Of a DNA stretch of 64,000 nucleotides, positions 3,432 through 61,966 are shown one piece after another. Source of the DNA: an uncultured Candidatus Saccharibacteria bacterium (GTDB lineage: Bacteria; Patescibacteriota; Minisyncoccia; Minisyncoccales; Staskawiczbacteraceae). The stretch covers positions 9,955 to 73,954 of the forward strand of contig CAZREI010000002.1 of assembly GCA_964599285.1 (NCBI GenBank). Reading direction: 5' to 3'. A program made the translations under genes and the position numbers. The notes beneath the pieces are model-generated. The model was given only the letters and a program-made list of their open reading frames with translations. It made no database searches and was not told the origin of the DNA. Position 1 is the stretch's first letter. The number at the start of each line of letters is the position of its first letter.

Positions 3432-3524
3432 AACATTATCATCGAATAACGAATTACTTTCGAATTTGCGAATCGTGTCGGACGTTATTCGTAAATTCGT
3501 ACACAATTCGTTATTCGTTGATAT

Positions 3525-3830
3525 CTAAACTTCTGATTTACACTTTTTGCAAATTCTAAATTTCCTGTCGCCATCAATCTTGTACCCTATTCTGGTTGCC
3601 TTGCCACATTTGGGACAAATCAGTTTCACATTAGAAGCATCCAAGGGAGCCTGTACCGGCACCACTTGTCCTTTTTCTCCCTCTTTTTTTGGCTTGATGT
3701 GTTTCTTTTTTAAATTCATTCCTTCAACCAACACTTTCCGCTCTTTTACCAAGGACTTTAAAATCTTGGCAGTCCTGCCTTTATCTTTTCCGGAAATGAC
3801 TAATACATTGTCGCCTTTCTTCAACTTCAT
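3525..3830 (-). CDS. rplX: 50S ribosomal protein L24 with C-terminal zinc-ribbon extension
   Basis: KOW motif MKLKKGDNVLVISGKDKG; C-terminal CPKCG...CKKC. Confidence 0.85.
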   Translation of the reverse strand: MKLKKGDNVLVISGKDKGRTAKILKSLVKERKVLVEGMNLKKKHIKPKKEGEKGQVVPVQAPLDASNVKLICPKCGKATRIGYKIDGDRKFRICKKCKSEV

Positions 3831-3833
3831 GAT

Positions 3834-3917
3834 TTCGCTACGAAATACGAATCAAGTACGAATATACCAATAAGATTTAATTCGTATATTCGTAAAAAAT
3901 TCGTATTTCGTAGCCCA
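3834..3917. repeat. family C hairpin repeat (gctacgaaatacgaat ... attcgtatttcgtagc)
   Basis: Copies at 4316-4400, 36007-36090, 36325-36410. Confidence 0.85.
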
Positions 3918-3942
3918 ATTTACTTTTACCTTTATGGCTGCA

Positions 3943-6756: not shown

Positions 6757-6836
6757 TGCTACATTTAACATGTGACAATTGACATTTGACCGCCGGTTCG
6801 TTTTTTGGTCAATTGTCAAATGTCAATGGTCAATTG

Positions 6837-7172
6837 TTACTTCTCTGGTTTTTTGACGTCCACTGCTACTTTTGCCGCCTGCGACGCTTCAGCCTGCTGT
6901 TCTATTCCTTTTTGCATCTTGCCGCCGTGTCTTGAAAATTTGGTTGACGCGGAAAATTCCCCTAGCTTGTGCCCTACCATATCTTCAGAAACATACACCG
7001 GCACAAACTCCTTGCCATTGTGGACTCCAAAAGTAACCCCAACCATTTCCGGTGAAATCGTGGAAGAACGCGCCCAGGTTTTTATGATAGTCTTTTCGTC
7101 TTTGCGCAGCCTCAACACTTTTTCCAGCAATCGCTGATCTACGAAAGGACCTTTTCTTAAGCTTCTCGACAT
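6837..7172 (-). CDS. rpsS: 30S ribosomal protein S19 with C-terminal extension
   Basis: [12 protein letters not shown]...GHKLGEF; extra about 25 aa tail. Confidence 0.9.
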
Positions 7173-7179
7173 AATTTTT

Positions 7180-7307
7180 GGAGTAATCACGAATATACAA
7201 ATACGTTCAAATATACAAATGTTACAAATATACGAATACGAGCGACGTGATTTGTATATTAGTAAAATTTGTATATTATTTTAGATTTGTATATTCGTGA
7301 TTACTCC
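7180..7307. repeat. family B hairpin element (ggagtaatcacgaatatacaaat ... atttgtatattcgtgattactcc)
   Basis: Perfect about 23-bp terminal inverted repeats. Other copies at 8150-8289, 10696-10809, 18432-18582, 25112-25314, 27386-27501, 49287-49461. Confidence 0.9.
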
Positions 7308-7312
7308 TTATC

Positions 7313-8143
7313 TTATTTTTTCTTACGCCTTTGTATGATGAATTTGTTGGTCCACTTTTTTCGGTTTCTGGTTTTCACTCCTAATGCCGGTAATCCCCAC
7401 GGAGTTTTTGGATGCTTCAATCCAATGGGTTGGCGACCTTCGCCTCCTCCATGCGGATGGTCAACCGGATTCATGGCTGATCCACGCACATGCGGCCGTC
7501 TTCCTTTCAATCGTGACTTACCGGCTTTTCCAACCGTGTAAAATCGATTTTCCGGATTAGACACCATGCCCACCGAAGCAAAACATTCTCCACTGACTTT
7601 GCGAACTTCGGTTGAAGGCATTTTCAAATTAGTGTAGCCGTGTTCTTGCGCCAATACCTGGGCCGCCGATCCTGCCGATCTTACCAAAATGCCGCCTTTA
7701 CCCGGTTCCAATTCAATGTTGTACACGTTCGTTCCCACCGGAATATTTTTTAACTTCATTCGATTACCCGGAGTTTGCGGCGCGTTTTCTGAAAATACTA
7801 TACTATCGCCCACTTTCAACCCTTGCGGCGCAATAATGTATTGCCTTACTTTATCCGAATATTCAATTAATGCAATAAAGCCGGTTCGGTTTGGGTCATA
7901 TTCCAAAGCAATCACATTTGCGGGCGCGTCCATTTTGGTTTGACTAAACTCAATAATCCGATACAGTTTTTTTACGCCGCCGCCTTTGTGTCGCACCGTA
8001 ATTCTGCCCGAAGCCTTTGATCTGCCAACCGAGCGCCTGACGTATTTTAAAAGCGATTTTTCCGCCCGTTTTTTTGTAAGCAAAGAAAAATCAATTCCGG
8101 TCATGCCCCGTCTGGATGGAGTTGTAGGTTTGTAAATCTTCAT
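7313..8143 (-). CDS. rplB: 50S ribosomal protein L2
   Basis: MKIYKPTTPSRRGMTG...GGEGRQPIG; start 8143 (upstream MRVFVYSCIRDYSKI is repeat-derived). Confidence 0.9.
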   Translation of the reverse strand: MKIYKPTTPSRRGMTGIDFSLLTKKRAEKSLLKYVRRSVGRSKASGRITVRHKGGGVKKLYRIIEFSQTKMDAPANVIALEYDPNRTGFIALIEYSDKVRQYIIAPQGLKVGDSIVFSENAPQTPGNRMKLKNIPVGTNVYNIELEPGKGGILVRSAGSAAQVLAQEHGYTNLKMPSTEVRKVSGECFASVGMVSNPENRFYTVGKAGKSRLKGRRPHVRGSAMNPVDHPHGGGEGRQPIGLKHPKTPWGLPALGVKTRNRKKWTNKFIIQRRKKK

Positions 8144-8288
8144 AATTTTGGAGTAATCACGAATACACGAATATACGAATACTCTCAAATATACAAATCT
8201 TACAAATATACGAATGTGCGCGAATGTCGTAATTTGTATATTGGTAAAATTTGTATATTATTTTAGATTTGTATATTCGTGATTACTC

Positions 8289-8723
8289 CTATATGATCTC
8301 TATTTTTTGCCCTTCCTTGACTGTAACTACGGCTTTGGTAAATCCCTTTCTAAACCCTTCAGTTTTTCCCAGCCTTCTTTTTTTGTGCGGAATTGTTATT
8401 ATGTTGACGCCCAGCACGTCTACTCCGTAAATTCCTTCCACTGATTTTTTTATTTCTAATTTATTGGAGTTGCGGTAAACCTTAAATGTATATTTATTCT
8501 TTTCTGCCAAATTGGTTGCCTTTTCAGAAATATGCGGTTCTTTAATTACACTATAAGAAAACCCCTTTGCTTTCTTTGGTCCTGTGGTCCGAACCACGGG
8601 ACTGGGTTTTTGCGGTTCGGGTTTTGCTGATTTTGTAGTCAAAACTTTTTCCGATTTTTTATCAGCTGGTTTTTTCGCCTTTTCTACTTCCTTTTTTCTT
8701 TTTAAAAAATCAAATAAACTCAT
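8289..8723 (-). CDS. rplW: 50S ribosomal protein L23 with Lys/Pro-rich N-terminal extension
   Basis: C-terminal ISEKATNLAEKNKYTFKV uL23 core; start uncertain. Confidence 0.75.
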   Translation of the reverse strand: MSLFDFLKRKKEVEKAKKPADKKSEKVLTTKSAKPEPQKPSPVVRTTGPKKAKGFSYSVIKEPHISEKATNLAEKNKYTFKVYRNSNKLEIKKSVEGIYGVDVLGVNIITIPHKKRRLGKTEGFRKGFTKAVVTVKEGQKIEII

Positions 8724-10689: not shown

Positions 10690-10952
10690 GAATTTGGAGT
10701 AATCACGAATATACAAATACGATCAAATATACAAATATACTAATACGAACGAGTGTTACGATTTGTATATTCGTATATTATTTTAGATTCGTATATTCGT
10801 GATTACTCCTTTTATAAACAAATACCGGGCACTTCGCCCGGCCAATTCAAAACTATTGAATTTTTTGCGGACTTATCTCTTGATAATCAAGAGTAGTATC
10901 TCGTCTTTTTCAACGATTAATCAGTGTACTATATCTTAATAGAAATATCAAC

Positions 10953-11046
10953 CCCGTCGTTGCTTCGCCTCCTTCAAAACCCTCGGTTTTGAATAATTTC
11001 CTACACGGATGGGACACCAAGTGTCCCCTCCTACCCACCCCTCGAG
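10953..11046 (-). ncRNA. conserved structured RNA motif, copy 1 (S10-L3 intercistronic)
   Basis: Blocks YGTGTAGGAA / TTCAAAACCGAGGGTTTTGAA / GGnnCGAAG are shared with 58557-58670. The intervening hairpin differs but remains a hairpin. Confidence 0.4.
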
Positions 11047-11049
11047 TAG

Positions 11050-11430
11050 CTATATCTTAATAGATATATCTACTCCCGATGGTAAATTCAAGTCTCTTAG
11101 CGCTTCAATGATCTGTTCGTTCGGGCTTAGAATATCAATGATTCTTTTGTGGATTCTCATTTCAAATTGCTCGCGGGCGTTCTTGTGAACAAAGGTTGAT
11201 CGGTTGACCGTATACTTTAAAATTTCCGTTGGCAGTGGCACCGGTCCCACCACTTCAACGCCATGCCGATTGGCAATGTCAATAATCTGGCGCACCGAAT
11301 TGTCTATGATTTTGTGGTCATAGGCTTTCAGCTTGATGCGCAGTTTAGGCAAAGAAGCCACCGTTTGAACTGGCGCTTCTTTGGTTTCAACTTTTTTCCT
11401 GGTAACAGTTTTTTTTGCGACTACCATTAT
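11050..11430 (-). CDS. rpsJ: 30S ribosomal protein S10 with N-terminal extension
   Basis: [29 protein letters not shown] uS10 core. Confidence 0.85.
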
Positions 11431-18014: not shown

Positions 18015-18425
18015 CTACTTTTTCAGTTTCGTTCCATACCTCGATCTTCCCTGCTTTCGGTTTTCTACTCCTGTCGTATCCAAAATGCCACGGACAATGT
18101 GGTATCTGACTCCGGGCAAGTCCTTTACCCTGCCGCCTCTGATTAATACCACGCTGTGTTCTTGCAAGTTGTGGCCTTCGCCAGGAATGTAGGCTGTCAC
18201 CTCCATACCGTTGGACAGTTTTACCCTGGCAACTTTACGCAAAGCCGAGTTTGGTTTTCTTGGCGTTTGGGTAAATACCTTAATGCACACGCCGCGCTTA
18301 AAGGGCGATGGGTAGTGTGATGGCCGGTTTTGCAAAGCATTAAAACCAAACTGCAAAGCCACGCCCTTCTTTTTGGCTTTAATGGATCTTCTGGGTTTTT
18401 TAATGAGTTGATGAATCGTAGGCAT
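18015..18425 (-). CDS. rpsL: 30S ribosomal protein S12
   Basis: [13 protein letters not shown]...[11 protein letters not shown]...; start 18425 (MYIRDYSKK is repeat-derived). Confidence 0.92.
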
Positions 18426-18479
18426 TTTCTTGGAGTAGTCACGAATATACAAATACGATCAAATATACAAATATACAAA

Positions 18480-18520
18480 TGTGAAGATTGCTTCGGCGCT
18501 CCTCGCAATGACGGACGGAA
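18480..18520. repeat. family I motif (ctggattgccacg...ctcgcaatgacg) nested inside family B copy
   Basis: Also at 9895-9960, 13858-13912, 25170-25262, 31860-31945, 49356-49405; related ctggattcccgattgcgcgggaatgaca at 29060-29090. Confidence 0.8.
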
Positions 18521-18659
18521 CGGATTTGTATATTGGTAAAATTTGTATATTATTTTAGATTTGTATATTAGTGATTACTCCTTCTAAAAAAGAATAAGCG
18601 CACTGCGCTCAATACCTGCAAGTCTATCAAAAAAAATAATGAGAGTCAATACTCGCGGG

Positions 18660-19329: not shown

Positions 19330-19470
19330 ATGTAATTATTCTAATTGCTCTAATTGACCTAATTATTCTAAGGAATGTCTAATTTCTAAAACGAACGGTT
19401 TGCATATTTTGAAGTTGGGATTTATTTAGGTTAATTAGAATAATTAGGTTAATTAGAATAATTTCAAAAC
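19330..19470. repeat. family M repeat (ttagaataattag words)
   Basis: Copy at 29950-30120. Confidence 0.7.
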
Positions 19471-19659
19471 ATGGCTTCTAAAATTTGTTCAATCTGCGCC
19501 AAAAAATCTTCCATGGGATGGACGCTGGTCAAACTGCGCGGAAAATATAATCCCACCCAAAAAGTACGCAAGTACCCGAATTTGCAATGGACGCGCAATG
19601 CTTCAGGCGAGCGCGTACTCGCTTGCGCCAAATGCATTAAAGCTTTAGCAAAAGTTTAA
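19471..19659 (+). CDS. rpmB: 50S ribosomal protein L28
   Basis: MASKICSICAKK...PNLQ...CAKC resembles bL28 (PNLQ motif, 4 Cys). Confidence 0.7.
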   Translation: MASKICSICAKKSSMGWTLVKLRGKYNPTQKVRKYPNLQWTRNASGERVLACAKCIKALAKV

Positions 19660-19906
19660 TGCATTTGCACAAAGGGGGTCGGGGAAATTGGGTATTTCCC
19701 CGTGAAGGAAAACAGCTTGCCGAAGGCAAGAGTTAGAAACCGTGGGTTTCTAAGGAGCTCGCCCCGCAGAGGGCGAGTGACAAATGGATTAAGGCAATGG
19801 CCAAGTAACAACATTTGACAATTGCCTGTCCGCCAAAGCTTTAGCGGCGGCGGAACCACTGACATTTAACTGCAACAAAAAATCGCCTTTCGGCGGTTTT
19901 TTGTTG
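19660..19906 (+). ncRNA. multi-hairpin structured region downstream of rpmB, ending in terminator
   Basis: Hairpins ggggaaattgggtatttcccc, cagcttgccgaaggcaag, agaaaccgtgggtttct, ctcgccccgcagagggcgag, ccgccaaagctttagcggcgg. Terminator aaaaaatcgcctttcggcggtttttt. Confidence 0.3.
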
Positions 19907-24464: not shown

Positions 24465-25103
24465 TTAAATATTGCTAAACCTTTTTTCGGCCTCTGCCCA
24501 GTTGACCACGTTCCACCAGGCTTTTAGGTAATCCGGGCGGACGTTTTTGTATTGCAAATAGTAGGCGTGCTCCCAGACGTCGTTGCCCATAATCGGCGTA
24601 TGACCATCGGACATTGGGTTGTCCTGGTTAGCCGTAGACATAACTTCCAGCTTGCCATCTTTATTTTTTACCAACCACACCCAGCCGCTTCCAAAACGCT
24701 TGGCTCCGGCGTCTTCAAATTTAGTTTTAAAATCTTCAAAACTGCCAAAAGTTTTTTTAATTTCTTCGGCTAACTTGCCGGTTGGTTCAGGGAGCCACCC
24801 CGCTGAGCGGGGTTCGGGTCCGCTAAGCGGACCCATAATCTCCCAAAACATGGAATGATTCACATGTCCGCCACCGTTGTTCTTAACAGCGGTGCGAATG
24901 TCTTCCGGAACAGCATTTAAGTCCATCAACAGTTCTTCTGCGCTTTTTTCAAAAAGTTCCGGATGTTTTTCCAAAGCATCATTTACATTTTTAACATAAG
25001 CCGCGTGATGCTTGTCATGGTGGAGCATCATAATTTCTTGTGAAATATAAGGCTCCAAAGCATTGTAGGTATAGGGCAAGTCCGGCAAAGCATGTTTTTT
25101 CAT
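24465..25103 (-). CDS. sodA: Fe/Mn superoxide dismutase
   Basis: [16 protein letters not shown]...HHDKHH...[13 protein letters not shown]. Confidence 0.95.
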
Positions 25104-25318
25104 AGTTTTAAGGAGTAATCACGAATATACAAATTTAGAACAATATACAAATGTTACAAATATACGAATGTGCTGGATTGCCACGCTGGCAAGATGCGTG
25201 GCGTAATTGGCCGCAGCCGATTCGCCCCATCTCCGGCTCGCAATGACGACGACGGGATTTGTATATTTGTAAGATTTGTATATTTGATCGTATTGGTATA
25301 TTCGTGATTACTCCAGCA

Positions 25319-26227: not shown

Positions 26228-27385
26228 TTATATTTCTCCCCGCTTAATTTTCCCCCGGATTTCTTCCACGAAATTGTTAAAATAGTACAGATTATGAAAC
26301 GTGAGCAGTTTTAGAGCCGTCAGCTCCCCTGCTTTCAATAAGTGGCATAGGTAATCTTTTTTGTAATTTAAGCAAGTGGCGCAAATGCAATTTTCATCCA
26401 GTGGTTCGCGTTTTTTTAAAAATTTAGTTTGTTTGAGATTTAATTTTCCCTCGCTGGTAAAGGCAACTCCGCGGCGGGCGTATTGGGTTGGGATAGTGCA
26501 GTCAAAGGTATCAACGCCGGTTTTTATGATGTTTTCAATGTCTTCCAGTTTTCCGATGCCAAGCAAGTGGCGTGGTTTTCTTTCAGGCAATTCGGCCATA
26601 ACCCAGCCCAGCATTTCTGACATTATTTTTTTGTCGCTGCCAAATTCTCCGCCAATGCCAAACCCATCAAAGGGCAGTGAGCCGATAAATTTTGCCGATT
26701 CCTGGCGCAAATCTTTATACCTTCCGCCCTGGACAATGCCATATAATGCTTGCTTGGACTTTTTATCCTTTAAACAAACTTGCGCCCACTGATGGGTTTT
26801 GATCAGCGAATTTCTGGTATATTCATGGTTAGCCAACGGAGCGGTGCACTCGTCAAAAGCAAAAATAATATCGGCGCCCAGCTTTTCCTGGATTTTCATG
26901 GACTCTTTGGGCCCCAAAAATAATTCCCTGCCGTCAACCGGAGACCTAAAATACACCCCATCTTGCATGATTTTCAGTTTTTTGGGCTGGTGGCCTATTT
27001 TTATTTCCTGGCGCAAATCGGCGTCCGACCCCATGCGCGTCTTAGGGTTTATCATTTTACCAACCTGCAAATCTTGCCCAAATCCCAATGAAAAAACCTG
27101 GAAGCCTCCCGAATCGGTCATCAGCGGCTTTTTCCAGTTCATAAAATCATGCAGGCCGCCGGCTTTTTCTACTATTTTTTCTCCAGGCTTTAAATGCAAA
27201 TGAAACGTATTGGCAATGAGCACCTGCGAATTGGTTTGGGCCACTTCTTCGCTAGTCAGCGTTTTTACCACCGCTTGCGTAGCCACCGGAACTAAACACG
27301 GAGTTTGGATAACTCCGTGCGATGTTTCGATAAATCCCAGGCGAGCATTGGAAATTTTTGATTTTTTGGAGATATGGAAATTCAT
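26228..27385 (-). CDS. tgt: queuine tRNA-ribosyltransferase
   Basis: TGT fold motifs; Zn site CICATCLNYKKDYLCH. Confidence 0.9.
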   Translation of the reverse strand: MNFHISKKSKISNARLGFIETSHGVIQTPCLVPVATQAVVKTLTSEEVAQTNSQVLIANTFHLHLKPGEKIVEKAGGLHDFMNWKKPLMTDSGGFQVFSLGFGQDLQVGKMINPKTRMGSDADLRQEIKIGHQPKKLKIMQDGVYFRSPVDGRELFLGPKESMKIQEKLGADIIFAFDECTAPLANHEYTRNSLIKTHQWAQVCLKDKKSKQALYGIVQGGRYKDLRQESAKFIGSLPFDGFGIGGEFGSDKKIMSEMLGWVMAELPERKPRHLLGIGKLEDIENIIKTGVDTFDCTIPTQYARRGVAFTSEGKLNLKQTKFLKKREPLDENCICATCLNYKKDYLCHLLKAGELTALKLLTFHNLYYFNNFVEEIRGKIKRGEI

Positions 27386-27503
27386 AAGGAGTGGTCACGA
27401 ATATACAAATACGATCAAATATACAAATATACGAATGCGGACGTTTGTCGTGATTTGTATATTAGTATATTAACGCAGATTCGTATATTCGTGATTACTC
27501 CAA

Positions 27504-27968
27504 TTATTTAAACGTGACCGGCAGAGTAAAAGTTTTGTCGCGCACCGGGTCGCCGCTGGCGTTTTCATTTTTGAAAACTAAAGATCCCAGACTCCCTGAA
27601 GTTGCTGTAAAGGTAATGGTTGTCTCAAATTGGGTTGGCAATTGGGTCCACTCGGTCGTTGCTTTCAAAACGCCTTTGGCCAACTCATTGCCACCGTTGT
27701 CCAGCAAACGCACGGTTCCCACTTGCCCTTCAAATCCAGACCAGCCGTTGCCATTTACAACTCCCGTGATTTTTAAGGGAGATAAAATTGTTTCGTTGAC
27801 TTTTGGAGAAAAAATTTCTATGCCAGAACTTACTGTTATGCTGGGGCTGGGGCTTGGCTCTGTAACAGGGGCTGCGGCTTTTTCTTTTGGCAACAACAGA
27901 AAAATCGCCCCGATTAAAATAAGAACTCCGACAATGGCTTCCACGATGAGAATTGTTTTTTTATTCAT
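27504..27968 (-). CDS. secreted/anchored Ig-like (Gmad2-like) protein
   Basis: Signal/TM then beta-rich domain. Confidence 0.4.
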   Translation of the reverse strand: MNKKTILIVEAIVGVLILIGAIFLLLPKEKAAAPVTEPSPSPSITVSSGIEIFSPKVNETILSPLKITGVVNGNGWSGFEGQVGTVRLLDNGGNELAKGVLKATTEWTQLPTQFETTITFTATSGSLGSLVFKNENASGDPVRDKTFTLPVTFK

Positions 27969-29962: not shown

Positions 29963-30115
29963 TAAAATTATTCTAATTATTCTAATTAACCTAATTGACC
30001 TAATCAAATCCCAATGACAAAATGTCGAATGCCTAAAACTGTACTTAGACATTCATGTATTTCGTCGTTATTTAGAATAATTAGAACAATTAGAATAATT
30101 AGAATAATTTAGAAA

Positions 30116-31841
<1,726 letters not shown>

Positions 31842-35989: not shown

Positions 35990-36086
35990 TTGCTACTCTT
36001 TAAGGCTACGAAATACGAATTTTTTACGAATATACGAAATTAAAACGCTCGCATTCGTATATTCGTATGCAATTCGTATTTCGTAG

Positions 36087-36332
<246 letters not shown>

Positions 36333-36423
36333 TTACGAATGTAGTACGAATATACGAAAGTCAGACGCCCACATTCGTATATTCGTAAAAAATTCGTATT
36401 TCGTAGCCTAATTAATATTAAAC

Positions 36424-37155
36424 TTAATGACTTTCAATGGCGGTATGTAGGGAAATTGAAACCAGGGTGAGCATGGCAAAGACAAACGACTGGATTAATC
36501 CTACAAAAATTTCCAGAAATAAAAATGGCAGCGGGACTACATACGGAACCAAGAAAAACACAATGGTCAGCAATACTTCACCGGCAAACACATTGCCAAA
36601 CAACCGAAACGACAGCGAAATAATTTTAGCAAATTCTGAAACCAGTTCCAAAATTCCAATGAAAAATTTTATGGGATTTTGGAAATTGATAAATTTGCTA
36701 ATGTGCGGCAAAACGCCCACCGCCATCATCCCCAACAAGTTAGTGACAATCACGGAAATGACCGCAAAGGCCAGGGTGAAATTTAAATCAGCGGCCGGAG
36801 ACCTAAACAGTGAAACTTCCCTGCCTCCGTTTTGGATGTACAGCGACCCGACGCCGGGCAAAATTCCCGACAGATTGCAAATCATGATGAAAATAAAAAT
36901 GGTGGCGATGAGCGGAAAATATTGCTCGGCTTTTTTTATGGATCCCAACATCCCTTCCATTAGGCCCAAGAGCCACTCAAAGCCCATTTCCACCACCGAC
37001 TGGACCGCGCCCGGAACGATTTGGATTTTGCGATAGAAAAGAGCCGCGCCGGCCATCAGGATCAGTGAAACTACGAACGTGGAAAACAAGCTATTAGTGA
37101 AAGCAAAATGGCCAATTGAAAATATTTCCTGCGCTTTTAGAGAAATTTCCTCCAT
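36424..37155 (-). CDS. atpB: ATP synthase subunit a
   Basis: Polytopic; conserved Arg region LSFRLFGN. Confidence 0.9.
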   Translation of the reverse strand: MEEISLKAQEIFSIGHFAFTNSLFSTFVVSLILMAGAALFYRKIQIVPGAVQSVVEMGFEWLLGLMEGMLGSIKKAEQYFPLIATIFIFIMICNLSGILPGVGSLYIQNGGREVSLFRSPAADLNFTLAFAVISVIVTNLLGMMAVGVLPHISKFINFQNPIKFFIGILELVSEFAKIISLSFRLFGNVFAGEVLLTIVFFLVPYVVPLPFLFLEIFVGLIQSFVFAMLTLVSISLHTAIESH

Positions 37156-48989: not shown

Positions 48990-49289
48990 TTATCTTACAA
49001 GCAGCAGCAATGCCGCTCCGCCGCTTTCTATGTGGTCTCCTACGACTTTTCCTATGCAACGGTTTTCATAGTCAAAAACCTGGCCGTCGCCGTGGACCGT
49101 GCCGATGTGGCTTCCGGCTTTGTACACGTACCCGTTGGCTCCAAAATTTCCGACCACGCTTCCCGAAGCATTGTGCACTTCACTATCGCTTGAAACATAT
49201 CCAATAATAACGTTTGCCGTGTTGCGGACCCTCCCATCTTCTCCAATGGTCGCCATTTTTTGCCCGGATATATCTAAGATGTCTGACAT
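48990..49289 (-). CDS. beta-rich hypothetical (bactofilin-like repeats)
   Basis: Start at MSDILD; G-x-V repeats. Confidence 0.35.
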   Translation of the reverse strand: MSDILDISGQKMATIGEDGRVRNTANVIIGYVSSDSEVHNASGSVVGNFGANGYVYKAGSHIGTVHGDGQVFDYENRCIGKVVGDHIESGGAALLLLVR

Positions 49290-49454
49290 AGTTTTTGGAG
49301 TAATCACGAATATACCAATACGATCAAATATACAAATGTTACAAATATACGAATGTGCTGGATTGCCACGTCGCTTCGCTCCTCGCAATGACGGACAGAA
49401 CGGATTTGTATATTGGTAAAATTTGTATATTGTTCTAAATTTGTATATTCGTGA

Positions 49455-50117
49455 TTACTCCCTAATTAGTTGGTATTCTTTGTTAAAAATCTTTTTGGAA
49501 ATAATAAAAATACTATAGGTGATAAAGGGCGCGGCAAAGACATCTATGGAATAATGCATGTGGGCCAAAATCATGGTGACGCCAAAAATGCCGGCGGCGA
49601 CAAAAAAGAAGTTTCTCCAAAGGGCTTCTTTCCAAAAAATCAGGCCAAATAAAAATGGCGCGCCCACGTGTCCCGAAAAGAAAAAATCATTTTTGGCATT
49701 GTATAAAAAATCGTAAATACTGAAACCAACGCCCTGGGCGTTTAAGGTGATTTGATGAAGGCTGACTCCCAAGTGCGTCAAGCTGATAAAAAAGGACCTG
49801 ACAATAATAAAAAATGCCAAAGATTTAATAGAAAAAAGCAGGTAGCGGGGCTGGATGGCGCAGAGCATCATAACGACAAAAGACAGTATCAGCGCGCCTT
49901 GCACAATGAAAAAATCTAAATTAATGGTGGGCAGGTTGTCCAATAATAAATCCCCCACGTAGGTTACCTGCGCGTGATGGTCAACATAATTGTAGGCAAA
50001 ATGCTGCACGAGCAAAGCGGCCGCCAATAGCGCCACGGCACCCAAGAACAACAAAAACGTATCCTTTTTCCAAAAATGCGTATGGCGCAAATATATTTTT
50101 TCTATGTAGCTATTCAT
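49455..50117 (-). CDS. PAP2-family membrane phosphatase
   Basis: SGH and HMHYSIDV motifs. Confidence 0.7.
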   Translation of the reverse strand: MNSYIEKIYLRHTHFWKKDTFLLFLGAVALLAAALLVQHFAYNYVDHHAQVTYVGDLLLDNLPTINLDFFIVQGALILSFVVMMLCAIQPRYLLFSIKSLAFFIIVRSFFISLTHLGVSLHQITLNAQGVGFSIYDFLYNAKNDFFFSGHVGAPFLFGLIFWKEALWRNFFFVAAGIFGVTMILAHMHYSIDVFAAPFITYSIFIISKKIFNKEYQLIRE

Positions 50118-53646: not shown

Positions 53647-54010
53647 TTCCGGTGTAGCTCAGCGGTAGAGCGATTCCCTGTCAACAAGGCAGCGCTCAGA
53701 AGAAACTCTGAGATGAACTTTTCGGGATATCGGTGAACCCTTCGACATTAATTGTCATGGCGATACCGAGGGAACCTAAATAATTTATTTGGGGCTCCGT
53801 AGAGACTAGATACCGAAATGCCTAATGTAGTTATTAGTTAGAAGTTTAAAGTTATAGTTATTAGTTCTTGGTTTAAAACTGAAAACTAAAAAACTTAAAC
53901 TTGGAACTTAAAACCAAAAACTGCCACGGCAAAGATATAGTCCACGCCTTGTGGAAACACAAGAATAAAGTGTAAGGAATGGGTCGTAGGTTCGAATCCT
54001 ACCACCGGAG
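53647..54010 (+). tRNA. tRNA (probably Asn-GUU) split by an about 292-nt group I intron in the anticodon loop
   Basis: 5' half tccggtg-ta-gctcagcggtagagc-g-attcc-ctgt. 3' half taa-ggaat-gggtc-gtagg-ttcgaat-cctac-caccgga-g. Intron has R-like gtagagactaga and exact S element aagatatagtcc, ends in G after exon U, and GCAG can pair CUGU for P1. Confidence 0.65.
53815..53925. repeat. family O repeat copy lodged inside the tRNA intron
   Basis: agttattagtt...aaactgaaaactaaaaaacttaaactt, similar to 38520-38660 and 51050-51180. Confidence 0.6.
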
Positions 54011-54011
54011 C
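53997..54011 (+). repeat. 15-bp direct repeat (tRNA 3' end), left copy
   Basis: tcctaccaccggagc; identical at 58681-58695. Confidence 0.7.
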
Positions 54012-54055
54012 AAGACAGGATTTGCTTCGTACAAATCCTCAATTTTAATTTCATT

Positions 54056-54484
54056 TTGTGCTGTTTTGAGATGAACTTTATGTCGTTGTTGAACTCAAAA
54101 AATATCGTTGCTTTAGGAATCATTGCTTTTTTAGTAGTGAGCATTTGGAGTTTATCTACCATGTGCATAATGGACATGAGCGGCCATATGGTAAATTGCC
54201 CATTCATGAACGGCTCATCAGGTTTTTGCCAGATGACCCTAACCGAGCATATCAGCCTTTGGCAGCAAACCTTTTCTTTGATAAAAATAAAAGATTTGTT
54301 TTTATTGTCTTTGCTGGTTTTTCTTTTTTCTGTTTTAGGTGCTGCGATCAGAAAAACCTACTACCAGTTAGAATCTCAGCCGTTTCGTCACTATTTTTAT
54401 AGGTATCGACCGGAAATAAAATTATTTAACCATCTGGAGCTGGCTTTTTCAGACGGCCTCATCCACTCAAAAATCTACGCTTAA
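54056..54484 (+). CDS. Cys/Met/His-rich membrane protein
   Basis: MSGHMVNCPFMNGSSGFCQM; start uncertain. Confidence 0.4.
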   Translation: MCCFEMNFMSLLNSKNIVALGIIAFLVVSIWSLSTMCIMDMSGHMVNCPFMNGSSGFCQMTLTEHISLWQQTFSLIKIKDLFLLSLLVFLFSVLGAAIRKTYYQLESQPFRHYFYRYRPEIKLFNHLELAFSDGLIHSKIYA

Positions 54485-54612
54485 TATTCGAAGCTGCCTT
54501 TTGTTTTTGTCAGCTCTCTTTACATACTAACTTTCATTGCGAAAGATTATTGTAAAAGAGAGCTGTAAGGCAGTTTTTTGTTAAACGTTTTCAGGGTAAA
54601 GTTAATCAAAAC

Positions 54613-55656
54613 ATGAATAAGGAACAGACCTATTTTATCAAAGGCATGCATTGCTCGGCCTGCGAAATACTCATCGAAAAAAAGCTCCTGGCAATTCCCG
54701 GGGTGAAATCCGTTGATGCTTCCCTATCCAAGGGAGAAGCGATAATTGAATACGATGGAGAAAAGCCGACAACTGAAACGCTCAACGACATGTTCAGGAA
54801 AGACAATTACACTTTTTCTGAAGATCGGCAGTTAGTAAGTAGCCAAGTTCAAGAGAAAAGCAAAGAATCAATAAATCCAACGCTGCTTGGATTGGCAATA
54901 GCCATGGTCATTGTGACAGGATTTTTGGTGCTGGATCGTCTGGGAATATCGGGGTTGCTCAATATCAGCTCAAAATCTTCGGCCATCACTTTTTTTGGTT
55001 TTGGAATCATAGCCGGCTTGTCCTCCTGTGCCGCGTTGGTAGGAGGTATCGTGCTATCTATGTCAAAGCAATGGCTCCAAATGTATAACTCCCAGCAAAG
55101 CAAAATAAAAAAACTCGAGCCGCACTTACTGTTTAATGTTGGCAGGGTTCTATCTTACGCCGTACTGGGCGGAGCGCTGGGATTGATTGGGGGCAGGCTG
55201 CAAATATCGGTAGGGCTTACTACTACATTGGTCATTGTCATTTCTGTCCTCATGATAGGGTTGGGATTGCAAATGCTCGAAGTAAAAGGGTTTCGGAGAT
55301 TTCAATTTTCAATGCCAAGATTCATTACCCGAGGCATTGCCAACGAAAATAATTTTAAGGGAAAGTATATGCCGTTTGTTATGGGGGCCGCCACCTTTTT
55401 TCTGCCTTGCGGTTTTACCATCACCGCTCAAACGATAGCATTGTTATCGGGAAACGCGTTGCAGGGAGGTTTGATTATGGGGTTTTTTGCCTTGGGAACT
55501 TTGCCCATGCTTTTGCTTATTGGATTATCAAGCGTTGCCTTTTCTTCAAAGCCTCGCTTAGCATTAATCTTCTCAAAAGTTGCCGGGTTCTTGGTGTTGT
55601 TCTTTGCCTTGTATAATATTTACCATCAATTAATACTATTAGGATTAATCAAATAA
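54613..55656 (+). CDS. HMA domain fused to CcdA/DsbD-like membrane domain
   Basis: GMHCSACE metal-binding motif; Cys in TM helices. Confidence 0.6.
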   Translation: MNKEQTYFIKGMHCSACEILIEKKLLAIPGVKSVDASLSKGEAIIEYDGEKPTTETLNDMFRKDNYTFSEDRQLVSSQVQEKSKESINPTLLGLAIAMVIVTGFLVLDRLGISGLLNISSKSSAITFFGFGIIAGLSSCAALVGGIVLSMSKQWLQMYNSQQSKIKKLEPHLLFNVGRVLSYAVLGGALGLIGGRLQISVGLTTTLVIVISVLMIGLGLQMLEVKGFRRFQFSMPRFITRGIANENNFKGKYMPFVMGAATFFLPCGFTITAQTIALLSGNALQGGLIMGFFALGTLPMLLLIGLSSVAFSSKPRLALIFSKVAGFLVLFFALYNIYHQLILLGLIK

Positions 55657-55661
55657 AAATT

Positions 55662-56078
55662 ATGCAAAAAAATAACCTCATTCAGCCGATATTAATTTCA
55701 GTGATCCTGATTTGCGTACTCATTTCAGGATATATTCTTGTAACTTCAAACAAGCAAACTGCAAGCCAGGGCGCGAGCGCCTTGGCACCCATGGTCAATG
55801 GCAAGCAGCTAATCCAAATGACGGTAAATGCGGTAAAATATAATCCCAATTCATTTACCGTAAAAGCCGGCATTCCGGTAAGCTGGCAAATTACTTCATC
55901 GGGCGAACCGGGATGCGATAGCGGAGAGGTAATCGCGCGCGGTTTAACTGATCCGATTTTTTTAAATCCCAATCAGGGGCAAGTTACTATCAAAGAATTC
56001 ACTGCGCAAACTCCAGGCACTTATCAGTTCGGTTGCCCGATGGGTATGGTACTTGGCACCATTGAAGTAGTAAATTAA
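55662..56078 (+). CDS. cupredoxin-like protein
   Basis: GTYQFGCPMGMVLG C-terminal ligand loop. Confidence 0.5.
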   Translation: MQKNNLIQPILISVILICVLISGYILVTSNKQTASQGASALAPMVNGKQLIQMTVNAVKYNPNSFTVKAGIPVSWQITSSGEPGCDSGEVIARGLTDPIFLNPNQGQVTIKEFTAQTPGTYQFGCPMGMVLGTIEVVN

Positions 56079-56090
56079 CATCAAAAATCC

Positions 56091-58394
56091 ATGACTCATA
56101 AAACATATCAAATTAAGGGAATGCATTGCGCTTCTTGCGCGAGCATCATTGAGATGGCTTTTAAGGAAACGGAAGGAGTCGCCTCCGCGCAAGTCAACTA
56201 CGGCACGGAAACCGCCAAAGTTTCTTTTGATCAATCAAAAACAAGTGTGGAAGCGCTTTCAAAGAAAATAGAACCTTATGGCTATTCCATTATCATGCCA
56301 ACGGCGGAAGAAATGGGCATGTCTACTGATGAACACGCCGCTCACACCGGCATCGGGCAATCAAAAAAAGAAAAACTAAAGGAAATTGCGGAGCAAAAAA
56401 CCATGGTCATGTCGGCCATTCCGCTGGCCATTGTCAGTATTTTTGCTATGACTTGGGAAACGCTGGCTCAATTCAATTTAGTGGCGCAGCAGCCGTTTGC
56501 CGTGGCAGAATTTTTTAGTCACCTACTACCGATTATGGCTACCTACGTTTTGTTTGTGGTGGGAAAGCCGTATTTACTCGGCATGTATCGGTTCCTGCGC
56601 TATGGCAAAGCCAATATGGATACATTGATTGGGCTCGGTACTTCAGTCGCTTTCCTGTACAGCTTTATTGTTACTGCGTTCACCAATTCAATGGCTCATA
56701 CTTATTACGATGTCACCATTGTGGTTATTACGTTCATTGCTCTGGGCAAATATCTTGAAGCCCGGGCTAAACTAAAAACAGGAGATGCTATTGAAAAGCT
56801 GCTGAACCTTCAAGCAAAAACGGCCTTAGTGATCCGGGACAGTAAAGAGCAAAAAGTTTCTATTAATGATGTGGTGCATGGGGATTTATTAATAGTAAAA
56901 CCGGGAGGAAGAATTCCCGTTGACGGAACTATTACCCAGGGAACTTCTTTTGTTGACCAAGCCATGATCACCGGCGAGCCCATGCTCGTTGAGAAAAAAT
57001 TGGGAGACCAAGTGGTTGCCGGCACCATCAATACCACTGGCAGCTTCACATTCAAAGCCACAAAAGTTGGGTCTGAAACGTTGCTATCTCATATTGTGAA
57101 AATGGTTCAGGAGGCACAGGGAAGCAAAGCTCCCATCCAGGCCTTGGCCGATAAAATCTCGGGCGTATTTGTGCCGGTAGTACTGGTGATTTCTTTTATT
57201 ACGCTTGGAATATGGCTTACGATTGGAACTCATTACCTAGGTTTTGCTGAAGCATTATCCTTCGGCCTAACTTCGTTTGTGGGAATCTTAGTCATCGCCT
57301 GTCCATGTGCTTTGGGATTGGCAACACCGACGGCAATTATTGTCGGCGTAGGCAAAGGAGCCAAAGAAGGCATTCTCATTAAAGATGCGGCAACGCTGGA
57401 AAAACTTCACAAGGTAAATACCGTGGTTATGGATAAAACCGGGACGATCACCAAAGGAAAAACAGAGCTTACGGACATTAAGAATTATTCCTTCCTTCGC
57501 CAAGGCTTCGGCGGGCAGGCAAAACTGGATGATAAAAAAGTAATATCCATCCTGGCTTCGCTCGAAAAAAATTCAGAGCATCCGATCGCCTCCGCAATCA
57601 CTAACTACGCAAAAGAAAAATCCATTGAAACAATAACGGTAGAAAAATTCGAAATCATCAAAGGCAAGGGGCTCAAAGGAATTGTTGATGGCAAGGAATA
57701 CTTCGCCGGAAATGCAAAACTTATCTTTGATCTAAAAATTCCTTTTGATGCCAAAAGCATTGAAACGGAAACCCGACAAGGGAAAACGCCGGTGATTCTT
57801 GCAACCCAAAAAGAGATCATCGGCGTCGTAATGATTGCTGACGCCATAAAACCAGAAGCAATCGATGCTGTAAAAAATCTGCACAAGATGGGCATTAAAA
57901 TCGTGATGCTTACCGGCGATGATAAAAATACCGCACAGGCAATTGCTAAAGAAGTTGGCATCGATAAAGTGATCTCGGAGGTGTTACCTGAAGATAAACT
58001 CAAAACTATCAAGGAGCTGCAGCAGAAAGGCGCGGTGATTGCCATGGCAGGTGACGGAGTAAATGATGCTCCGGCGCTAGCACAAGCTGACGTCGGCATT
58101 GCCATGGGGACAGGCACAGATGTTGCTATTGAAACCGCTGGCATTACACTTTTGCACGGCGATATTTCAAAGCTGGTCAAAGCGGTGCGCCTTTCAAAAA
58201 TGACGATGCTTGGCATCAAGCAAAATCTCTTCTGGGCGTTTATTTATAACATAGCAGGAATCCCGATCGCCGCCGGCATCTTATATCCATTCTTTGGAAT
58301 ATTGCTTTCACCGGTGTTTGCGGGATTGGCCATGGCATTTTCAAGCGTAAGCGTGGTTGGAAATAGTTTGAGGATTAGAGGGAAGAAATTGTAG
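56091..58394 (+). CDS. copA: Cu+-exporting P1B-type ATPase
   Basis: GMHCASCA, CPC, DKTGT, GDGVNDAP. Confidence 0.95.
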   Translation: MTHKTYQIKGMHCASCASIIEMAFKETEGVASAQVNYGTETAKVSFDQSKTSVEALSKKIEPYGYSIIMPTAEEMGMSTDEHAAHTGIGQSKKEKLKEIAEQKTMVMSAIPLAIVSIFAMTWETLAQFNLVAQQPFAVAEFFSHLLPIMATYVLFVVGKPYLLGMYRFLRYGKANMDTLIGLGTSVAFLYSFIVTAFTNSMAHTYYDVTIVVITFIALGKYLEARAKLKTGDAIEKLLNLQAKTALVIRDSKEQKVSINDVVHGDLLIVKPGGRIPVDGTITQGTSFVDQAMITGEPMLVEKKLGDQVVAGTINTTGSFTFKATKVGSETLLSHIVKMVQEAQGSKAPIQALADKISGVFVPVVLVISFITLGIWLTIGTHYLGFAEALSFGLTSFVGILVIACPCALGLATPTAIIVGVGKGAKEGILIKDAATLEKLHKVNTVVMDKTGTITKGKTELTDIKNYSFLRQGFGGQAKLDDKKVISILASLEKNSEHPIASAITNYAKEKSIETITVEKFEIIKGKGLKGIVDGKEYFAGNAKLIFDLKIPFDAKSIETETRQGKTPVILATQKEIIGVVMIADAIKPEAIDAVKNLHKMGIKIVMLTGDDKNTAQAIAKEVGIDKVISEVLPEDKLKTIKELQQKGAVIAMAGDGVNDAPALAQADVGIAMGTGTDVAIETAGITLLHGDISKLVKAVRLSKMTMLGIKQNLFWAFIYNIAGIPIAAGILYPFFGILLSPVFAGLAMAFSSVSVVGNSLRIRGKKL

Positions 58395-58556
58395 CGGATA
58401 ATTTTTACTCCTCCCTGACCAAAGGCTTCTCCATTTGCATAATATCGGCGTCGGGGAAGCGCAGTAGGTCTTCCCATTTGGTGTTTATGAACTCGTTCCA
58501 CTTCGGGAGCAGTGAAATCAGAACGCCCCTTGCGGGTGTTTTTGATTTCACTTGAT

Positions 58557-58670
58557 TCGTTGAGGTAGGAGTCGAACCTAGGATGGGGTCGGGAAGGAGA
58601 AGTCCTTCCCGTGTAGGAAGCCTTCAAAACCGAGGGTTTTGAAAAAGGATCGAAGTGACGCTGGTTCAAG
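58557..58670 (+). ncRNA. conserved structured RNA motif, copy 2
   Basis: Same blocks as 10953-11046 (reverse complement); preceded by T-loop-like ggagtcgaacc. Confidence 0.4.
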
Positions 58671-58680
58671 TAAAACGGAG

Positions 58681-58695
58681 TCCTACCACCGGAGC
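58681..58695 (+). repeat. 15-bp direct repeat (tRNA 3' end), right copy
   Basis: tcctaccaccggagc. Confidence 0.7.
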
Positions 58696-59060
58696 CATCG
58701 TATACGAATAGAGGCGAGAGCCTCTGTTTTGTTCGTAAAATCGCCTGTTTTTGCCAGTTCTAACCTTAAATACTCTGCTTGTAGGGCAGGATAGCCTTCG
58801 CCGATAGGTTGTAGCCACTCTTTTGGCTCAATAGTTAGATTTTTGTTCTTAATTATGGGCTTTTCTCCCAAGCTCATTAAGATTTCTTTCTTCAATTCTA
58901 ACCCTCTTTCTAAAAACTTGATTCTGGCGTAGGCGGCAAAGTGAAAAGTTTTTTCATTTATCTCAAACCAATGCTCGACTCGGGCTTCGGTTTCTTTTAC
59001 CAGATTTTTTAGCTTGTTTATTTTTGCCGCTAGTAAACCTATATTAAAAGTAAAATAAAG
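58683..59060 (-). pseudogene. C-terminal gene remnant without start codon
   Basis: About 120-codon frame opening directly after a stop; first Met only 70 codons from end. Confidence 0.3.
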
Positions 59061-59107
59061 CCCCCAATCAGTTTCCGTAGAAACCGACTAGGGGCATGTT
59101 GAAAGAA

Positions 59108-59518
59108 CTACCTGATGCTTGAGTTGCTCACGCTACTCAAACTGCTCTCCTCACGAACGTTGTTGATAGCACCGTTGCTATGAACATCGTGAGGCGTGTC
59201 GTTGACTGATCGAAACGGTGTCAGTTTGATGACCACGCCGCTTACGATTGCGGCGATGGCCACGATCACGAACACCGAGACGAAAAGGTCAATGACAACC
59301 CACTGCGAAACAACCACGGGCTGGTAAATCACGACGAGCGTGATCGCCACCCAGTGGCTGGTGCAGTAAGAGCATGACACAAGCTCACCGAGCCAGGTGT
59401 TTTTCTTGGCACTCCATTCCCTTGCGGAAGCGAAGAGCCGAGATTTGGAGGTGGTCACCGAAATCGCCGCTGTCGCCAGAGCGAGAACGATAACCTGATA
59501 CAAGCCGTTCAGATCCAT
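59108..59518 (-). CDS. DUF1360-like membrane protein
   Basis: SCSYCTSHWVA; AAAGGAGG SD; high GC. Confidence 0.5.
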   Translation of the reverse strand: MDLNGLYQVIVLALATAAISVTTSKSRLFASAREWSAKKNTWLGELVSCSYCTSHWVAITLVVIYQPVVVSQWVVIDLFVSVFVIVAIAAIVSGVVIKLTPFRSVNDTPHDVHSNGAINNVREESSLSSVSNSSIR

Positions 59519-59533
59519 TGCGCTACCTCCTTT

Positions 59534-59737
59534 CTAGCAGGTACATCCGCCCTGGGACTTGGACTGTTCGCGACGCATTTGTTCGTTGATGCTGTCGGCC
59601 AGCTTCAGGGCTTTGTCCACCCCGGCCAACACATCGTCAACCTCCGGAACCTGGTCGGAAATGTCAGTCGTCTCAAGAGACGAACTGCCACCTGGACCCG
59701 GCCCTTTGGTTTTCTTGCGGAACCGATCTTGGAGCAT
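59534..59737 (-). CDS. Pup-like small protein ending ...QGGCTC
   Basis: Gly-rich N-terminus; EVDDVLAGVD...KSQGG resembles Pup DEIDDVLEEN...QKGGQ; AAGGAGA SD; directly after ARC stop. Confidence 0.5.
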   Translation of the reverse strand: MLQDRFRKKTKGPGPGGSSSLETTDISDQVPEVDDVLAGVDKALKLADSINEQMRREQSKSQGGCTC

Positions 59738-59749
59738 GGATGTTTCTCC

Positions 59750-61774: not shown

Positions 61775-61894
61775 GACTGGTTCCTTTCTGAACTAGTGAC
61801 CGATTTACCAAAAGACCGTCAGACCGTTTGACACCTCCTTTTAGTTTTCAAAGACCATTCCTAATGATCTCCAAGGCACATACCTTGAGATACC

Positions 61895-61925: not shown

Positions 61926-61930
61926 TAGTT

Positions 61931-61966
61931 TGTAGTAAAATAAAATCCCCTAGCGCTTTGTTTGCA
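61931..61966 (-). terminator. intrinsic terminator after 62003-62437 gene
   Basis: cccctag...ctagggg stem plus T-run on minus strand. Confidence 0.5.

Follow-up and report, generated by a model that had tools for sequence, protein, structure and literature searches.

What is the short, strand-specific motif that recurs in the intergenic DNA of a 64,000-nucleotide (nt) stretch of an uncultured Candidatus Saccharibacteria bacterium (contig CAZREI010000002.1, positions 9,955 to 73,954; hereafter the window), once within a ribosomal protein operon and once beside the copper ATPase gene copA? An initial annotation of this DNA described it as a conserved, structured RNA-like motif present twice, with a compensatory change in one hairpin, and suggested a cis-regulatory or mobile-element-associated RNA. 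We find that the motif belongs to a family with homologs across divergent lineages of the candidate phyla radiation (CPR)/Patescibacteria, and the reading that we prefer, to which we give about an even chance of being right, is that it forms the core of a small, mostly non-autonomous mobile DNA element, with a core that works as folded single-stranded DNA. Genomes of CPR/Patescibacteria are tiny, and few mobile elements have been recognized in them; at several copies per genome of roughly 1 Mb, and three in this window, such a family would be a major unannotated contributor to genome change in these organisms.

The two copies first described share, in the same order, CCGTGTAGGAA, a 21-nt hairpin, TTCAAAACCGAGGGTTTTGAA, and GG..CGAAG..ACG, as both reading of the sequence and alignment confirmed. 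The 21-mer is identical at 10973-10993 on the minus strand (copy 1, gene order tuf-rpsJ-[copy 1]-rplC) and at 58623-58643 on the plus strand (copy 2, gene order copA-[copy 2]); a shared 21-mer is expected 0.01 times by chance within the window and was observed twice. Between the blocks lies a variable hairpin that differs in sequence from one copy to the other and pairs perfectly in each, over 7 bp in copy 1 (GGGACAC/GTGTCCC) and 8 bp in copy 2 (GGGAAGGA/TCCTTCCC). The hairpin reported for copy 2 is therefore real, although the string quoted for it, gggaaggacttctccttccc, is the reverse complement of the plus strand, and both copies are, as stated, sense to their neighboring genes. The motif is present not twice but three times, since a more divergent copy follows rpmB on the plus strand at 19671-19781 (copy 3), where a covariance model, R1, matches 19671-19734 with 44 bits (E 6.5e-12). 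The three copies do not agree on one strand, and an explanation by replication-strand bias was rejected. Repeats of gene ends, described below, extend the element past the annotated motif: copy 1 spans 10929-11076 and copy 2 spans 58562-58697, the partner of its repeat being 4.6 kb upstream.

With one genome searched per species, exact matches to the 21-mer turned up in at least 118 genome stretches, almost all of them from Patescibacteria, with some genomes carrying multiple copies. The matches listed include Saccharibacteria, Staskawicz-, Yanofsky-, Jorgensen-, Berkel-, Lipton-, Wildermuth-, Nealson-, and Wolfebacteria and Paceibacterota, and the few among them from beyond Patescibacteria (Sporolactobacillus, Desulfobacteraceae) lack the other blocks. 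R1, which was built from the first parts of the core (M, Pa, and Pb, defined below), gave 108 matches at E < 1e-3 in 100 loci, together with 15 further matches in metagenome loci that had been fetched by a pattern without Pb. As far as the scans show, the family is restricted to CPR/Patescibacteria. Viral contigs in IMG/VR contained no match to the 21-mer, and the 25 that matched a looser pattern were all rejected by the covariance model; with BLAST searches against plasmids and phages also empty, a phage or plasmid origin was dropped. Rfam 15 at gathering thresholds returned no match in the whole window, and local scans around copies 1 and 2 with E up to 10 gave only a 15.9-bit chance match to sroE on the motif. 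The searchable literature, queried also for strings from the conserved sequence, yielded no account of the motif, and the family is apparently undescribed.

Placed side by side, the copies give a core consensus consisting of a purine tract, GUC, a variable hairpin (Pa), GUGUAGGAAAUUA, a second hairpin (Pb, the 21-mer), GGAG, a third hairpin (Pc, often GCGAAGC), and GAC. In Pa, 6 to 8 of the 9 pairs have two-sided changes, and G-U combinations outnumber A-C by 11-12 to 1, an excess that fixes the folding strand as the one chosen in the initial annotation. Pb at first appeared invariant because it had served as the search query; variants found since keep the loop CCGNGGG, and their stems compensate (UUAGAAA/UUUCUAA, CCAGAAA/UUUCUGG, CUAAAAA/UUUUUAG). 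Across 53 copies, 97.1% of Pb cells are paired, compared with 81.6% after shuffling and 34-69% in slid registers, and 17 of 18 pairs have compensatory changes, figures that are somewhat generous in that the alignment was fitted by the model and leans to it. Optional hairpins occur between GGAA and Pb and also inside Pc. The short form of Pc, GCGAAGC, stands at 10961-10967 (-) in the window and in many other loci, and longer forms insert a covarying stem at the same place; GCGAAGC has the same sequence as d(GCGAAGC), a DNA mini-hairpin known for its unusual stability. Other intergenic repeats abound in the window, which might favor the view that the resemblance is accidental or that the motif is a plain genomic repeat with neither structure nor function. 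The chance expectation for the 21-mer, the more than 100 homologs across divergent CPR lineages, and covariation far above the shuffled and slid controls refute that view, and we regard its probability as negligible. The motif is conserved, structured, and strand specific, and its compensatory changes are real.

The purine tract, M, lies directly 5' of Pa and repeats the Pa 5' strand in mirror order and not as a complement; the two change in concert. Over seven positions, the combinations of M with the Pa pairs are G*G-C, A*A-T, and T*A-T (an example is AAAGGGGGTCGGGGAAATTGGGTATTTCCCCG). This rule fits 356 of 395 cells, compared with 210±10 (maximum, 242) when tracts are matched with hairpins from other sequences and with 95-217 when the register is slid. 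The rule holds for all three window copies, and nearly all members of the family have a homopurine 5' strand in Pa. A class I intrastrand triplex comprises a reverse-Hoogsteen tract, a purine strand, and a pyrimidine strand on one strand (PMC4666352), and M-Pa has the sequence features of the purine-motif type, namely, the order of its parts, at least six triples (here seven), and loops of 1-6 nt. Judged from the sequence, Pa is probably capped by a seven-triple purine-motif triple helix with M. Purine-motif triplexes are said to be unable to form in RNA (PMC4666352); their formation with an RNA third strand is contested, and the known natural RNA triple helices belong to the pyrimidine motif (PMC7583470). 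Within the mobile-element reading, we accordingly lean slightly toward a fold of single-stranded DNA over one of RNA. To our knowledge, the three-way covariation of M and Pa would be the first comparative evidence for a natural purine-motif triplex under selection, and a selected triplex would bear on the long debate over the biological roles of such structures.

The surroundings of the core point to insertion at gene ends. Every well-resolved copy has the same layout: a gene terminus (Y), a spacer or cargo, a short arm (S'), the core, and a second, often diverged terminus (X) that continues into the native flank. S' is an inverted copy, 6-20 nt long, of the start of Y, and the spacer is usually a terminator and rarely holds cargo genes. 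Insertions lie in the T-loop of tRNA genes or in the last 20-75 nt of protein genes, with one case in the first 48 nt.

Copy 1 lies wholly on the minus strand. Its Y (11050-11076, GGAGTAGATATATCTATTAAGATATAG) is the working 3' end of rpsJ (S10; Pfam Ribosomal_S10), encoding GVDISIKI*, and its X (10929-10955, GGGGTTGATATTTCTATTAAGATATAG) is a second S10 end that also encodes GVDISIKI* and differs from Y at three positions, all synonymous. S' (11044-11049, CTACTC) is the inverted copy of GAGTAG, which starts Y, and it pairs with this sequence and not with the GGGTTG of X. The core (10956-11043; R1, 72 bits, E 1e-20) begins with M (11035-11041), a third-strand purine tract GGGGTGG followed by a turn; Pa (11006-11032) is a hairpin with its first base mutated from C to A and is followed by TGTAGGAAATTA, Pb occupies the 21-mer position given above, and the 3' part (10956-10972) holds GGAG, a GCGAAGC-like Pc, and GAC.

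Copy 3 stands on the plus strand behind rpmB (L28). The working gene end, Y (19629-19659, CAAATGCATTAAAGCTTTAGCAAAAGTTTAA), encodes ..KCIKALAKV*, and S' (19660-19667, TGCATTTG) is the reverse complement, without mismatch, of CAAATGCA, which begins Y; against X it has one mismatch. Its core follows a subfamily layout that recurs at four other loci (L156, L169, L199, and L203): M (19671-19678, AAAGGGGG), the Pa hairpin (19680-19702), an optional extra hairpin (19715-19730), a variant Pb (19733-19753, TTAGAAACCGTGGGTTTCTAA) followed by GGAG, and a Pc with an extended stem (19758-19777, CTCGCCC..GGGCGAG) followed by TGAC. X (19782-19808, AAATGGATTAAGGCAATGGCCAAGTAA) is a diverged second L28 end encoding KWIKAMAK*; relatives have natural L28 ends of almost the same sequence (L120: AAATGCATTAAGGCAATGGCCAGAACTTAA), and X differs from Y by four synonymous third-position changes, one conservative change, and one in-frame 3-nt indel.

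Copy 2, on the plus strand, uses a tRNA gene in the same manner. Its S' (58562-58580, GAGGTAGGAGTCGAACCTA) is an inverted copy of the tRNA T-arm and the start of the acceptor 3' strand, and it contains the T-loop-like ggagtcgaacc of the initial annotation, which we located at 58569-58579. The core (58581-58659; R1, 73.8 bits, E 2.7e-21) consists of M (58581-58588, GGATGGGG), the Pa hairpin (58590-58611) followed by TGTAGGAAGCC, and the Pb hairpin at the position given above, followed by AAAGGATCGAAGTGAC. X (58660-58697) starts with an altered T-loop (GCTGGTTCAAGTAAAACG) and ends in the tRNA 3' end GAGTCCTACCACCGGAGCCA. The T-arm-like sequence on the opposite strand (GGTTCGACTCC) was considered as part of a minus-strand tRNA or transfer-messenger RNA, a candidate that was rejected as ARAGORN and Rfam were both silent there; this T-arm is S' itself.

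The same pattern holds across the other loci. ARAGORN places 44 copies no more than 200 nt downstream of a tRNA on the same strand and none beside a tRNA on the opposite strand; 15 tRNA identities are targeted, with a median distance of 102 nt from the tRNA end to Pb. In these copies the repeats start in the T-loop and reach or pass the tRNA 3' end, and S', directly 5' of M, is the inverted T-arm plus acceptor 3' strand. Among protein genes, the 3' end of rpsI (S9) is duplicated in L084 and L077 and, by inspection, also in L032 and L036; a mraY-like gene end is duplicated in L039, and other gene ends are duplicated in L043, L072, L091, and L101. The S10 end is the target both in window copy 1 and at an orthologous site, L059, and the L28 end is that of window copy 3; genes next to the core at still other loci include L15|secY, lysS|serS, and atpG|atpD. 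The one clear exception to sense placement is L087 (3186-3420), where the first 48 nt of pth are duplicated on the opposite strand and the element lies antisense at the 5' end of its target gene. A general rule that elements are sense to flanking genes was dropped, since distant flanks are only mildly skewed (upstream, 32 on the same strand and 14 on the opposite strand) and L087 breaks it. The family also explains why CPR genomes contain orphan tRNA 3' fragments and gene ends present in duplicate.

The start of the repeat is matched by a complementary S' in 22 of 60 copies, compared with 2.1 in controls, and Y is a better pairing partner for S' than X is in 49 of 55. The repeats are 10-75 nt long, variable, and sometimes diverged; in L072, for example, Y and X are about 75% identical over 75 nt, and both encode a complete and similar C-terminus. 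Like the two L28 ends of copy 3, such pairs differ in the way that orthologs do, which indicates that one repeat came from another lineage and that these are not fresh target duplications. Attempts to identify the native repeat from tRNA stem pairing (L041, L007, and L114) were ambiguous and were set aside.

Some copies depart from this layout. At least four (L047, L070, L078, and L058) are circularly permuted, with Pa as the closing stem of a 68-nt minimal motif. Permuted minimal copies (L047 1716-1785, L070 4773-4861, L078 2801-2833, L058 412-467, L026 5810-5868, and L057 5584-5656) carry no S', Pc, or gene-end repeat, and at least two of them are sense between cistrons, at rpsK|rpsD (L078) and atpG|atpD (L047). 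In L106 and L014, a second, truncated S' and the start of M follow X and a terminator and end abruptly at GGGG, which could be a tandem remnant or an excision footprint. In three further copies (L009 about 70-162, L017 1131-1241, and L156 about 1448-1530), the GCGAC at the 3' end of the core abuts the first base of a complete tRNA, with no obvious S' or upstream repeat.

Comparison with relatives shows the insertion to be polymorphic. Three relatives with the same S7-S12-M50 peptidase-L28 synteny (loci L119-L123) have an empty L28 site, with a terminator directly after the L28 stop codon. The missing copy indicates that the element is or was mobile, in agreement with the mobile-element association proposed in the initial annotation. 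At the S10 site, the coding sequences of the window and L059 are 80% identical, whereas Y (27/27) and S' plus M (17/17) are identical throughout, together 44/44. The X of L059 differs from that of the window at synonymous sites and in the stop codon; the two are identical for 20 nt and then diverge, and the downstream flanks are unrelated. The simplest reading of these alignments would be that the segment from Y through the spacer and S' to the core is the inserted unit and that X and the flank beyond it are native.

Copy 2 is the distal end of a family member that carries cargo. The target is a tRNA-Asn(GUU) gene on the plus strand (53648-54010), apparently split after anticodon position 35 by a putative group I intron of about 290 nt (about 53682-53972). 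The match to Rfam Intron_gpI (RF00028) over 53666-53964 scores 43.4 bits (E 1.2e-9), short of the gathering score of 50, and the flanking exons are recognizable by eye as TCCGGTGTAGCTCAGCGGTAGAGCGATTCCCTGT and TAAGGAATGGGTCGTAGGTTCGAATCCTACCACCGGAG; an arrangement of this kind, with an intron-split tRNA, has been described for Patescibacteria (PMC13011429). ARAGORN finds no tRNA in the entire 64-kb window and probably misses tRNA-Asn because the intron splits its anticodon loop. Y, the 3' end of this tRNA (53994-54013), forms with 58678-58697 the direct repeat already noted beside copy 2, 18 of 20 positions being identical. Between Y and S' lie 4.6 kb of copper-resistance cargo (54014-58561, plus strand) encoding a 142-amino-acid membrane protein, a protein with HMA and DsbD_2 domains, a cupredoxin-like protein, and a CopA-type P-type ATPase. 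These open reading frames (ORFs) include no recombinase, and the GC skew of the island is reversed relative to its flanks.

Direct repeats of tRNA 3' ends that start in the T-loop, together with a replacement gene end, are the classic signature of tRNA-targeting integrative elements. On this basis the copies could be ordinary attachment scars of tyrosine-integrase elements that have mostly lost their cargo, the core being an attP arm beside attR, with duplex protein-binding sites or a small regulatory gene. The resistance island bounded by copy 2 and, by eye, XerC/D-like recombinase genes near a few copies are consistent with that origin. However, more than 90% of the copies have no room for cargo, with a terminator-sized spacer and Y 70-150 nt upstream of Pb, and the only sizeable island has no integrase. 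The core sequence is free to change as long as the pairing and triple rules hold, which is what a folded single strand and not a set of duplex protein sites would show; permuted copies lack any repeats, and the many different targets each have a matched S'. We therefore consider attachment scars unlikely.

An RNA product was the other half of the initial interpretation. Most copies are sense to tRNA or operon genes, yet a terminator-like hairpin with a T-run stands between gene and core in 30 of 50 tRNA-linked copies. These terminators, the antisense pth copy, the unrelated nature of the neighboring genes, the purine-motif triplex rules, and the frequent presence in Pc of GCGAAGC, a stable mini-hairpin of DNA, all argue against a co-transcribed cis-acting RNA, and a cis-regulatory role is unlikely. 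RNA might still be the active molecule in another way. Transcribed with the upstream gene, the core could be a ribozyme, self-cleaving or self-splicing, that cuts out the stretch from Y through the core and links the gene body with X, or it could be a module for 3'-end processing or stability; the element would then be a small intron with a spare exon end, its mobility RNA based or secondary. Strand-specific folding with G-U far above A-C is what such an RNA would show, the modular architecture with optional hairpins and circular permutation recalls hammerhead and twister ribozymes, S' is reminiscent of an internal guide sequence, and exons could be joined precisely through the Y/X repeat. Against it, besides the terminators and the antisense pth copy, stand the absence of any Rfam match even at E up to 10 and a third-strand covariation that follows purine-motif rules, which are disputed for RNA. 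In the X of copy 3, moreover, a zinc-ligand Cys is replaced by Trp, so that X is not in use as an exon and splicing to it would yield a defective L28. Group II introns, and with them their reverse transcriptases, are reported to be absent from complete Patescibacteria genomes (PMC13011429). Taking the sequence evidence together, we hold an active RNA to be doubtful. Known ribozymes (hepatitis delta virus-like, hammerhead, and twister) were compared by hand and rejected, their junction strands being a misfit and Rfam silent, and a likeness to the Alu domain of signal recognition particle RNA (two hairpins joined by UGUAG) was dropped for want of Rfam support.

The sequences show the family, its layout, the covariation, the insertion polymorphism, and the cargo; beyond this, a mobile DNA element could work as follows. 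Y, the spacer, S', and the core would be brought in by the element, X being the displaced native terminus, and the replacement terminus would keep essential genes intact. The core would fold on one strand into Pa with its M triplex, Pb with the CCGNGGG loop, and a GCGAAGC-type Pc, and we infer that this folded single-stranded DNA would serve as the recognition or synapsis module for a step of recombination or transposition. The two junctions, gene body|Y and core|X, both appear to lie at the 5' edge of a sequence, S, that S' can pair with; S' may thus act as a guide that aligns the element's own S with the S of the target, where an enzyme not encoded by the element would exchange strands at the 5' edge of S. 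Homologous recombination could also spread the element between lineages, as for homing introns, since it is flanked on both sides by conserved gene sequence, and this would explain a preference for the most conserved genes.

Several observations weigh against this account. In the S10 comparison, the rest of the core is only 69/77 identical between the window and L059, below the 44/44 of Y, S', and M, and a core less conserved than Y and S' is a poor fit to recent transfer of the whole unit. Mismatches in the Y:S' helix show no wobble bias (G-T 10 versus A-C 7), which makes it look like a copied inverted repeat and not a selected fold. Many copies lie sense inside operons (S10|L3, L15|secY, rpsK|rpsD, atpG|atpD) and must be transcribed. 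The preference for DNA over RNA comes from the published biophysics of purine-motif triplexes and not from this sequence, and an intramolecular RNA version may exist. The window island and the scanned neighbors yielded no integrase, transposase, or HUH protein, and clustering of neighboring ORFs showed no protein family recurring at a fixed position beside the elements; the clusters are small (S9, L19, a glycosyltransferase-like protein, and a helix-turn-helix [HTH] protein with a LAGLIDADG-like motif, seen by eye at 4 loci). The proposed mechanism also leaves unexplained how an element acquires the matching Y and S' for a new target.

With these points in mind, a more specific idea can be put forward tentatively, as possible but less than an even bet: the elements may form a new class targeted by base pairing, with a rewritable S', that inserts at the edge of the pairing in essential genes, does no harm by virtue of the spare end, has a triplex core held by covariation in single-stranded DNA or RNA, and perhaps encodes no protein of its own. 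If this is right, the core would be the first natural purine-motif triple helix of its kind, and if S' sets the choice of target, the element would join the guides of IS200/IS605 and the bridge RNAs of IS110 as an instance of nucleic-acid-programmed insertion.

Some features of these loci and of the window lie outside this argument. The HTH/LAGLIDADG-like ORFs (207-248 amino acids) occur in element-bearing tRNA clusters (L017 1294-2004, L018 807-1430, L023 4226-4972, and L114 1212-1898); they have an N-terminal helix-turn-helix and, by eye, GLYWGEGNK or LYLGEGSK, with no Pfam endonuclease domain, and the ORF of L017 is inserted between tRNA-Ile and tRNA-Val genes that are adjacent in relatives (L075). 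In the window, the segment at 59000-62000, just past the right end of the copper island, has 51-58% G+C, compared with about 42% elsewhere, and encodes on its minus strand an AAA ATPase (59750-61477) and a DUF1360 protein (59108-59518); the segment may have been acquired separately. Most intergenic spacers of the window contain long AT-rich palindromes built from short repeated words (GGAGTAATCACGAATATACAAAT..., ATTCGTATATTCGTAAAAAATTCG..., TTAATTAGAATAATTAGG..., GTCAATTGTCAAATGTCAA...), for example, at 7168-7310, 8138-8290, 10694-10811, 18420-18597, 25096-25315, 27376-27507, and 49285-49465, with other word families at 3440-3940, 36006-36432, 19331-19478, 29965-30124, 2482-2573, 6761-6841, and 1071-1180. 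These palindromes flank many genes, several distinct word families each recur in multiple spacers, and they are unrelated to the motif.

How, then, does the family compare with known systems? Tyrosine-integrase islands and their derivatives, such as those resembling cis-mobilizable elements, share with it insertion in the 3' part of a gene (the T-loop in tRNA genes), flanking direct repeats around an intact gene, cargo between the repeats as in copy 2, and repeats that can differ, one coming from another lineage. They differ in that copies of the family are nearly all 100-200 nt long, with no integrase even in the 4.6-kb island, and in that the family has a target-matched S' and a covarying single-strand fold at one end, many targets, and one 5' gene end; of the hallmarks of tRNA-targeting integrative elements, it has the direct repeats of tRNA 3' ends but carries no integrase gene of its own. 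Homing introns and intron-less homing likewise favor the most conserved genes (tRNA, ribosomal proteins, and ATP synthase) with conserved flanks on both sides, and the tRNA targeted by copy 2 also appears to carry a group I intron; the core, however, belongs to neither the group I nor the group II introns (no Rfam match), the gene is functionally uninterrupted, and no endonuclease gene is tied to the family.

Among elements that act through single strands, IS200/IS605 and REP/RAYT systems are also strand specific, with hairpins, an internal segment complementary to the joining site, and miniature non-autonomous derivatives. IS200/IS605 elements have sub-terminal hairpins at both ends; their guides are 4-5 nt long and directed at fixed tetra- or pentanucleotide targets, whereas S' is 6-20 nt long and specific to each target, and they make no target duplication, whereas gene ends are repeated over 10-75 nt in the family. 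A Y1 transposase was not seen near any copy, and neither a transposase among the scanned window ORFs nor an autonomous copy was found; TnpB-like genes are reported from Patescibacteria (PMC13011429). The likeness is one of logic only. Integron attC sites and the attP hairpin of CTX phage share a one-strand fold that varies in sequence with pairing kept, a hairpin stem (here Y:S') that has the sequence of the double-stranded target, and a position at the 3' end of genes or cassettes. They differ in that the family core has a triplex and a conserved loop unknown in attC and has no R''/R', attI, or dif-like sites; by inspection, and with no genome-wide search for intI, the copies have no intI beside them, are solitary, form no cassette arrays, and have consensus ends that misfit RYYYAAC/GTTRRRY.

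Closest to the core itself are the BoxC/PIT repeats of Escherichia coli and others (PMC4666352), which also form a class I purine-motif intrastrand triplex on one DNA strand, are repeated in intergenic DNA, and are linked to genome rearrangement. Their sequence is conserved, however, whereas the triplex of the family covaries and is one module beside Pb, Pc, S', and the gene-end repeats. Miniature inverted-repeat transposable elements (MITEs) are likewise small, multicopy, and non-coding, are probably mobilized in trans, and can fold into stem-loops, but the family has neither common terminal inverted repeats nor a fixed short target duplication, and its inverted arm is copied from the target. 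The family does not have the sets of features that define MITEs, IS200/IS605-type elements, or attC sites. A non-autonomous insertion element that targets gene ends is of a known kind; an architecture that combines an inverted arm matched to the target, a spare gene end, and a covarying core of triplex and hairpins is new.

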